The notes under the pieces were generated by a model. It saw only the letters and a list, made by a program, of their open reading frames with translations. It searched no databases and was not told where the DNA came from. A stretch of 46,029 bases of DNA from a virus: the UHGV virus genome UHGV-0229940; one strand, 5' to 3'. Positions within the stretch are counted from its first letter, which is position 1; the number at the start of each line of letters is the position of its first letter. Shown here in pieces: positions 44,577-45,006 of the stretch. Made by a program: the position numbers and the translations under genes.

Positions 44577-44651
44577 ACTTTAGTTGATTGTTAAGTTGTT
44601 TGTAAAGAACCCTCAACAGAAGACTCTTTAGAAACTTGGTAGATTTTTAAC

Positions 44652-44945
44652 GTGGCTACTACCATCCACCCACACTTTACCATACCTCACCGCGCCTTAC
44701 CCGACAGGGCTGCACCTTGCCTTGCCAAACATCACTTAAAAACCCTATGAGATAACCTATCGAGTATAATTTAAAGGCTCTTAAGTGATGCAATCGAATT
44801 TTAATGTAGCTCCGATTAACTACCCATACCCTACTTTACCTTGCCGTACTGTACTTTACCCGACCATACCGGACAATACTTAACCCGACCTCGCCCTACC
44901 GGACATCACTTAAAAACCCTCTTAGAAGACTCTTAAGTGATGCTG
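44652..44945. repeat. repeat family array B, homologous to array A
   Basis: Contains GCTACTACCATCC unit start, CACTTAAAAACCCT boxes, hairpin 44792-44817 with the same loop TTTTAATGTAGC, ACTACCCATACC box. Confidence 0.75.
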
Positions 44946-44972
44946 GTGAGTACCCGTTGGTTTATGCTGCTC

Positions 44973-45000
44973 AGTATACTCACCAAATTTTCTATGTCAA
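44973..45000 (-). promoter_or_regulatory. sigma70-like leftward promoter (TTGACA, 16 nt spacer, TATACT) within an inverted repeat
   Basis: Reverse complement of 44995-45000 is TTGACA and of 44973-44978 is TATACT; overlaps inverted repeat GGTGAGTA/TACTCACC. Confidence 0.55.
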
Positions 45001-45006
45001 CAACTT

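Follow-up and report, generated by a model that had tools for sequence, protein, structure and literature searches.

Array B, a non-coding stretch in a 46,029-nucleotide window of phage DNA (the whole stretch analysed here), is best explained overall as the upstream vrRNA array of a type II VIPR locus whose guides are aimed at a satellite of Escherichia coli. The probability of this reading is put at about 0.95. VIPR (Viral Interference Programmable Repeat) is a CRISPR-like system of RNA-guided silencing (bioRxiv 10.64898/2026.04.26.720920, 10.64898/2026.04.26.720927; 2026). It acts on DNA, was described only in 2026 and is proposed to be older than CRISPR; here its guide-RNA genes were picked from raw sequence. 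In a VIPR locus, vrRNA genes of ~100 nt flank the genes of two phage-encoded proteins, the RAMP-like Vipr and the accessory Vap. Within each vrRNA, 9-16 GGY/NN units lead into an invariant 3′ tail that contains a pseudoknot, and in SUSP1 the vrRNAs are expressed as ~100-nt RNAs, co-purify with Vipr and silence their target (10.64898/2026.04.26.720920, 10.64898/2026.04.26.720927). Since Vipr and Vap of the window are nearly identical to those of SUSP1, the locus is assigned to type II as described in both preprints. Because a near-identical ortholog, that of SUSP1, has already been published, the locus adds nothing new in kind. Residual novelty lies in intact vrRNAs, some still matching the satellite, of relatives in which scans gave no vipr, and in the conserved hairpins that separate the vrRNAs.

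The proposed mechanism rests on the two preprints, which are not peer reviewed. Transcription would proceed leftward from a promoter, P_B, through vrRNAs B1 and B2 and then vipr and vap, with the three vrRNAs of a second array, A, following the cassette. Each vrRNA would be a run of 12-18 GGYNN units capped by a 3′ hairpin-pseudoknot tail. In the preprints' account, one Vipr protomer occupies each unit, with GGY sequestered and the two N bases presented; the concatenated NN dinucleotides would then pair with double-stranded DNA, every third target base being skipped, and the outcome would be transcriptional silencing of competing mobile elements. The target here would be a 12-kb satellite inserted in the yecE gene of E. 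coli; it has separate versions of the phage tape-measure and baseplate genes. By analogy with SUSP1, the RNAs of the present phage are expected to be expressed, to be processed to ends near those predicted, to form filaments with Vipr and to act in silencing.

Genomic setting

The source phage is a Felix O1-like myovirus (Felixounavirus), and the window is part of its genome; 258 phage records match the 2.2 kb around array B at roughly 89-95% identity. The structural genes, from the terminase large subunit and portal through to the tail fibres, run rightward, and gene direction turns leftward from about 39.5 kb. Array B is bordered on one side by the DNA ligase stop codon (45007, minus strand) and on the other by an open reading frame of 200 codons at 43974-44576. 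A similar non-coding stretch, array A (42963-43530), is found on the opposite side of the two-gene cassette. Genes neighbouring the arrays are vipr, vap and those for a secreted-type 127-amino-acid protein and an HTH_3 regulator; replication genes near array B are those of the ligase, a T7-like polymerase and a primase-helicase.

Elsewhere in the window, 26 tRNA genes, all on the + strand, are found at 10298-15441 with short open reading frames interspersed. Two adjacent tail-fibre genes have in common His-x-His-type coding repeats (e.g. GGTGCTCACACNCAC) at 35880-36207 and 38389-38707, and the same type of repeat has been reported in gp76/gp77 of Felix O1 (PMC3185647). The repeat arrays are unmentioned in that genome paper (PMC3185647), and literature searches for Felixounavirus transcriptomes gave nothing useful.

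The repeat unit and its code

The sequence-only reading had proposed that arrays A and B are homologous. A repeat search detected four copies of ~123 nt at 43181, 43347, 44616 and 44770 with 60-74% identity, and what A and B share is homologous structured units, not low-complexity similarity. On the + strand the unit has four parts: a box hairpin, a second hairpin of 7 bp whose 12-nt loop is constant, the sequence AACTACCCATACC and a tract of 75-100 nt. The hairpin loop assigned to 44792-44817 is indeed there, with TTTTAATGTAGC (44799-44810) between AATCGAA (44792-44798) and TCCGATT (44811-44817); the one stem mismatch that had been noted is A.C on the + strand, and the motif ACTACCCATACC is present at 44819. 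The CACTTAAAAACCCT boxes exist as described but start at 44733 and 44907, not at about 44741 and 44906. All of the array motifs are confined to arrays A and B in the 46-kb window, always in one orientation. The pentamer repeats that had been noticed are real as well: runs of at least seven in-phase NGY-NN pentamers occur at five places only, all within the two arrays. The sequence-only reading was descriptive and followed the antisense strand. It missed the GGYNN guide units, the 3′ pseudoknot tail and the RNA-binding protein in the cassette.

The code was derived from 98 tracts (76 unique) at 27 related loci, namely four GenBank records, Felix O1 and 22 IMG/VR contigs, the last collected with a loop-plus-flank pattern. 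On the + strand the tracts (C 37-46%, G 3-13%) are strict arrays of NNACC pentamers, which read GGYNN on the minus strand. Across the 831 units of 72 tracts, the three constant positions are G (77%), G (98%) and Y (100%), and the two positions that follow have entropies of 1.96 and 1.92 bits. Tract lengths differ by multiples of 5, and 72 of the 76 unique tracts are in phase modulo 5. The window displays five GGYNN tracts of 12-18 units each.

Length differences in multiples of 5, together with internal duplications such as TGACC repeated three to four times and a 20-nt triplication in vrRNA A2, would suit a non-functional pentanucleotide microsatellite; a recombination scar from insertion of the cassette might likewise explain the single hybrid unit of Felix O1. 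Slippage, however, gives identical units, whereas here GGY is kept in 831 units while NN is at maximum entropy, and the NN strings match real genes. A non-functional origin is thus extremely improbable. The A2 stretch at window 43242-43335 contains both a 1-nt frame break after five units and the triplication, which has the form AGTGA AGTAA GGTYT GGTTT, and A2 may be a decaying or recently duplicated guide.

The 3′ tail and the functional strand

The hairpin stems are of covarying types, AGTCTCA/TGAGACT and AATCGRA/TYCGATT, and the common A.C stem mismatch of the + strand is G.U on the minus strand (13 of 17 copies). Stem covariation and the minus-strand G.U wobble together argue that the functional molecule is a minus-strand RNA. 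Three tail types have complementary pseudoknot halves at the same places, GUAG/CUAC, GUGG/CCAC and AAGG/CCUU, and pseudoknot and stem covary among them. The B1 tail hairpin reads AAUCGGA-GCUACAUUAAAA-UUCGAUU, an upstream GUAG being the complement of CUAC in the loop; that of B2 reads UGGUAG-UAGCCACGUUAAAAAU-CUACCA, with the pseudoknot GUGG/CCAC. When 14 distinct H0 tails are aligned, 98.6% of cells are paired and 3 pairs display compensatory change. None of 500 shuffles reaches the observed value, and slid controls give 29-54%. Independent covariation events are few, because the H0 tails represent essentially two lineages. What had earlier been described as a hairpin plus ACTACCCATACC is, judged by its sequence, this predicted 3′ hairpin-pseudoknot tail.

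Two other readings place function in the + strand or in the DNA duplex. In the first, the + strand would carry nut-like or Rho-dependent terminators (a CUCUUA boxA-like loop, a boxB-like hairpin and a rut tract) that stop rightward antisense transcription. Over 75-100 nt the + tracts are rich in C and poor in G, and the box core contains CTCTTA, as such elements would have it. The probability is nevertheless negligible: no rightward promoter of any quality was found, the best matches (9/12) being inside genes; the stem mismatches are wobble pairs on the minus strand only; the strict 5-nt register and the target matches are unaccounted for; and the published small RNAs have the vrRNA sense. The second regards the array as protein-binding DNA, a partition or centromere-like site, in keeping with its short direct repeats and with the annotation 'possible binding site of StbAB' in KT184315 (KhF3). 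Conserved loops with covarying stems are, however, the signature of a folded single strand, not of a duplex operator. Only 3 of the 5 positions in each repeat are conserved, which also speaks against iterons, and no StbA/StbB or ParA/ParB genes were found adjoining the array, so that a partition site has next to no likelihood.

Elements of the locus

The features of the two arrays and of the cassette, read as parts of a VIPR locus, are collected in Table 1.

Table 1. Predicted features of arrays A and B and of the vipr-vap cassette (window coordinates)
Feature	Position	Strand	Description
Promoter P_B, TTGACA-N16-TATACT	45000->44973	-	11/12 consensus matches; directly after ligase stop codon (45007); points into array B and vipr
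Inverted repeat GGTGAGTA / TACTCACC	44948-44955 / 44977-44984		One arm overlaps the -10, the other about +10 to +18
'box1' hairpin	44904-44942	-	Arms CATCACTTAA / TTAAGTGATG, conserved core ACCCTCTTAGAAGAC on +; between P_B and vrRNA B1
vrRNA B1	44792-44905	-	16 GGYNN units (44905->44826), GGGUAGUU, H1-type tail hairpin (44817->44792)
Long 'box1' hairpin, B1-B2 spacer	44730-44790	-	Predicted 18-bp stem, MFE -29.8 kcal/mol, z = -3.87
vrRNA B2	44637-44731	-	12 GGYNN units (44731->44672), GGGUGGA, H0-type tail hairpin (44664->44637)
Degenerate box and vipr ribosome-binding region	44577-44631	-	AAGAACCCTCAACAGAAGAC at 44605-44624 on +; element 'Bx', always 49 nt from the H0 motif
vipr	43974-44561	-	RAMP-like protein, polymerises on GGY motifs (per preprints); 195 residues encoded at 43977-44561
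vap (vipr accessory protein, vap1 type)	43531-43971	-	145/146 identical to the ORF that follows vipr directly in SUSP1
Terminator-like intrinsic hairpin after vap	43519->43504	-	Precedes array A
vrRNA A1	43369-43467	-	13 units, H1-type tail
vrRNA A2	43203-43335	-	5 + 13 units with a 1-nt frame break between; H1-type tail, stem AGUCUCA
vrRNA A3	43054-43163	-	15 units, H0-type tail UGGCAG...CUGCCA, pseudoknot AAGG/CCUU
Promoter P_A, next leftward operon	43007-43035	-	Flanked by inverted repeat ATAAGCTATAA / TTATAGCTTAT (43010-43020 / 43042-43052)

As the only good promoter upstream of array B, P_B would drive B1, B2, vipr and vap. Its sequence is conserved in Felix O1 and Mooglevirus. The array had been said to end in an inverted repeat that overlaps a near-consensus leftward promoter, and it does so: the repeat GGTGAGTA/TACTCACC lies over P_B, an 11/12 match. 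With one arm upstream of the start site, the repeat cannot fold into a hairpin in the RNA made from P_B. It is a possible duplex operator, perhaps for the nearby HTH_3 protein (42073-42402). Mooglevirus has a different inverted repeat, CCTGACGGG/CCCGTCAGG (locus L028, 4775-4825), at the same position relative to the same promoter. Leftward sigma-70-type promoters at both array ends sit within inverted repeats (43010-43052; 44948-44984), and those at P_A and P_B may be operators.

The arms of the box hairpins vary between box types and the core is retained. The location of these hairpins between vrRNAs suggests processing or insulating elements. The conserved box hairpins may serve as processing sites for a host RNase, in the role that hammerhead ribozymes have in other VIPR types. 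vrRNA B2 is the counterpart of SUSP1 vrRNA1, the same unit being the sole upstream vrRNA in the SUSP1 locus (L014). Two observations count against the preferred reading: a promoter consensus scan detected no separate promoter for array A, and the terminator-like hairpin lies between vap and array A.

The vipr-vap cassette

In a PDB sequence search, Vipr matched 36pp_D, 'SUSP1 Vipr protein', over its full length (E = 6e-128, 191 of 195 residues identical). The residues that hold GGY or contact target DNA, as listed for Vipr in the preprints (10.64898/2026.04.26.720920, 10.64898/2026.04.26.720927), are present: H17, K33, R39, E71, M72, K82, K88, R138, C173, D177, W178 and R179. The sole exception among the published contact residues is T175, where the window protein and SUSP1 Vipr alike have V. 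The second gene encodes Vap, to which the role of accessory protein has been assigned (10.64898/2026.04.26.720920). Neither vipr nor vap received a function from Pfam, PHROGs or NCBIfam.

Guide targets in an E. coli satellite

The reading rule was examined with 76 unique guides and two satellite fragments of about 25 kb in total, with a match threshold of at least 80%. When one target base is skipped, 26 of the 76 guides match at 80% or more, 13 of them at 90% or more; skips of 0, 2 and 3 bases give 0, 2 and 1 guides, respectively. The reversed sequence read with a skip of one gives one guide, and 25 kb of the phage's own DNA gives none. The published 1-nt skip rule is thus independently reproduced with different data and databases, a replication of a gapped recognition code in which two of five bases are read in the guide and two of three in the target. 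No guide of the window matches the window itself above the shuffled null.

Concrete targets can be named for three guides: a serine recombinase, the first gene of the satellite tail operon and a small recombinase. When 11 units of A3 (22 specified bases) were run as an exact pattern against IMG/VR, two contigs emerged, and by local scoring of the whole guide A3 matches the serine-recombinase gene of the satellite at 28 of 30 NN positions (predicted site at 14193-14237 of locus L033). B1 matches a satellite open reading frame at L033 21373-21930 at 28 of 32 NN positions (predicted site at L033 21728-21775); this frame opens the leftward operon in which the tail genes come last. Two exact-pattern IMG/VR scans with guide B1 gave no match, because the natural target has four mismatches. 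A1 matches the small recombinase gene of a satellite variant (L036) at 21 of 26 positions, with 18 of 18 in the central 9 units (predicted site at L036 16448-16486). By coordinate arithmetic, the skipped bases fall on codon position 3 (wobble) in the A3, B1 and A1 targets.

No convincing target was found for B2 and A2 at the satellite loci or, for B2, in an IMG/VR pattern scan as well; that this concerns two of the five guides counts against the reading. The B2 pattern occurs in IMG/VR only in four related metagenomic phage contigs of 39% GC. These are probable chance matches, because nothing beyond the forced units agrees and the contigs have no similarity to the satellite.

The satellite is an insertion of ~12 kb that splits yecE (DUF72) in E. 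coli WP9-S17-ESBL-11 (L033 13880-25750). It carries genes for a large serine recombinase, a baseplate-type protein, a tape-measure protein, an HNH endonuclease and an AP2-domain protein, along with several small open reading frames. Of 5,426 complete E. coli genomes, 493 have matches to an 8-kb segment of the element. The baseplate-type protein and the product of window 29373-30173 share 64% identity. The tape-measure protein is 29% identical to that of the window over the full length and about 75% identical at the N-terminus. Such shared versions of tail genes fit a satellite dependent on a Felix O1-like phage, and with its own tape measure the satellite may alter tail length.

Some satellite variants carry a vrRNA of their own, with 10-13 GGYNN units and the phage H0-type tail (L034 16290-16380, NZ_CP017220; L035 15598-15700, NZ_CP081706). 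These were seen only by a later periodicity scan, as blastn of array A against the 5,426 E. coli genomes gave nothing. No vipr or vap was found in the vrRNA-bearing satellites by tblastn (E<=1). The guide of the first variant (L034) matches other satellite variants at 17 of 18 positions, in agreement with the statement that satellites target each other (VIPR preprints 10.64898/2026.04.26.720920, 10.64898/2026.04.26.720927).

Comparison with known systems

Compared with the SUSP1 type II VIPR (PDB 36pp), the locus has Vipr 98% and Vap 99% identical. In both, GGYNN units precede a pseudoknot tail, vrRNAs flank vipr-vap, the code skips 1 nt and the target is of one class, a satellite in E. coli. 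When parsed in the same way, the SUSP1 locus (L014) agrees with the published layout, with a single vrRNA upstream and three downstream. Array B differs in having two upstream vrRNAs, the extra one being the H1-tailed B1. The guide sequences also differ, and a vrRNA has up to 20 units in the clade of the window versus 9-16 in the paper.

Close parallels outside VIPR include the crRNA-Cas7 filaments of class 1 CRISPR systems (Cascade, Csm and Cmr). As described in the preprints, both have RAMP-fold subunits that form a polymer on a guide RNA, with thumb insertions that interrupt the guide-target duplex at regular intervals. VIPR differs in having neither a repeat-spacer array nor adaptation genes, in reading two bases per five of the guide and two per three of the target, and in being phage-encoded and silencing rather than cutting. 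Array B is not a CRISPR array, the conserved part being 3 nt per 5 and not repeats of 25-40 nt. An Rfam scan of the window detected tRNAs only and no CRISPR repeat family, and the genes neighbouring the arrays have no cas-type Pfam matches.

The phage ICP1 reportedly encodes a complete type I-F CRISPR-Cas system, with nuclease and spacer acquisition, against the PLE satellite of Vibrio cholerae. It is similar in that a lytic phage deploys an RNA-guided system against a satellite that parasitises that phage; the VIPR locus differs in that it has one RAMP-like protein and one accessory protein only. A protein oligomer that reads a conserved triplet every 5 nt of RNA is also known from TRAP and the trp leader RNA, which has 11 (G/U)AG triplets with spacers of 2-3 nt; TRAP is a closed ring that regulates attenuation. 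The spacers in the TRAP target carry no information, whereas in VIPR the spacers are the information.

Several further candidates were dropped on evidence from the rival explanations: an ops-like pause site, G-quadruplexes, TRAP-like RNA wrapping and geminivirus-like iterons with an HUH nick hairpin. Genome termini were ruled out because the direct terminal repeats of UAB_Phi87 map elsewhere (PMC4837284).

Distribution and guides without a cassette

Array-like DNA is found in 231 phage records and Vipr at 90% identity or more in 118, so that about half are without Vipr. Close relatives have between 1 and 5 vrRNA copies. At the array B position Kolesnikvirus lacks an intergenic region, and Mooglevirus has the promoter and inverted repeat only.

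This distribution bears on another reading of array B, that of a replication origin. The G-rich RNA made from a strong promoter would form an R-loop or priming zone and the hairpins would load primase or helicase, as in T7- or T4-type origins. The array lies among replication genes (ligase, T7-like polymerase, primase-helicase) with a promoter directly upstream, and its strand asymmetry is strong (+ strand C 37-46%, G 3-13%). That asymmetry is fully explained, however, by the fixed GGY and the maximum-entropy NN, and the NN positions spell satellite sequences. Copy number ranges from 1 to 5 in close relatives, and the arrays are absent from Mooglevirus and Kolesnikvirus despite the same replication genes. 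An origin is therefore very improbable.

Felix O1 (NC_005282 57632-57913; L027 3633-3914) has no cassette at this locus and displays a single unit consisting of P_B, a box, 10 GGYNN units, a tail and P_A. Such a single hybrid unit is what recombination between the two arrays, with loss of the cassette, should leave. A tblastn search of Felix O1 that covered 78 of its 86 kb detected neither Vipr nor Vap. Four complete Felixounavirus genomes of 81-88 kb from IMG/VR (L009, L013, L019 and L024) likewise have one or two vrRNAs and no cassette at the ligase locus, and all four were absent from a scan for contigs encoding close Vipr relatives. The guides of these four genomes, like that of Felix O1, keep the GGY register intact, and some of those in the four match the satellite, at 18 of 18 and 25 of 28 positions.

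The main preprint text makes no mention of orphan vrRNAs, and the word 'orphan' is absent from it. It is tentatively suggested, as an idea that is on the whole unlikely, that vrRNA arrays are guide-only modules that work without a Vipr gene in cis. Orphan guides might be taken up by Vipr that a co-infecting phage provides in trans, or might be decoys that soak up Vipr. If this were true, guides would be a tradable or cheatable resource in the conflict between phage and satellite.

Database annotations

GenBank labels that treat parts of the array as terminators or StbAB sites can be corrected. Across KT184315 (KhF3), MZ726792 (ASO1B) and NC_012749 (wV8), array parts are labelled as a StbAB site, as rho-independent terminators or as 'DR_4', the 'possible binding site of StbAB' label being that of KT184315. 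Of the rho-independent terminators so annotated, one corresponds to a box hairpin and another falls within a guide tract. Throughout these three records, vipr and vap are annotated as hypothetical proteins. Two records named for other hosts, GU169904 (Staphylococcus phage SA1) and MG065664 (Campylobacter phage A132), contain this Felixounavirus region at 88-93% identity, with vipr at 99.5%; they are probably chimeric or misassigned assemblies.
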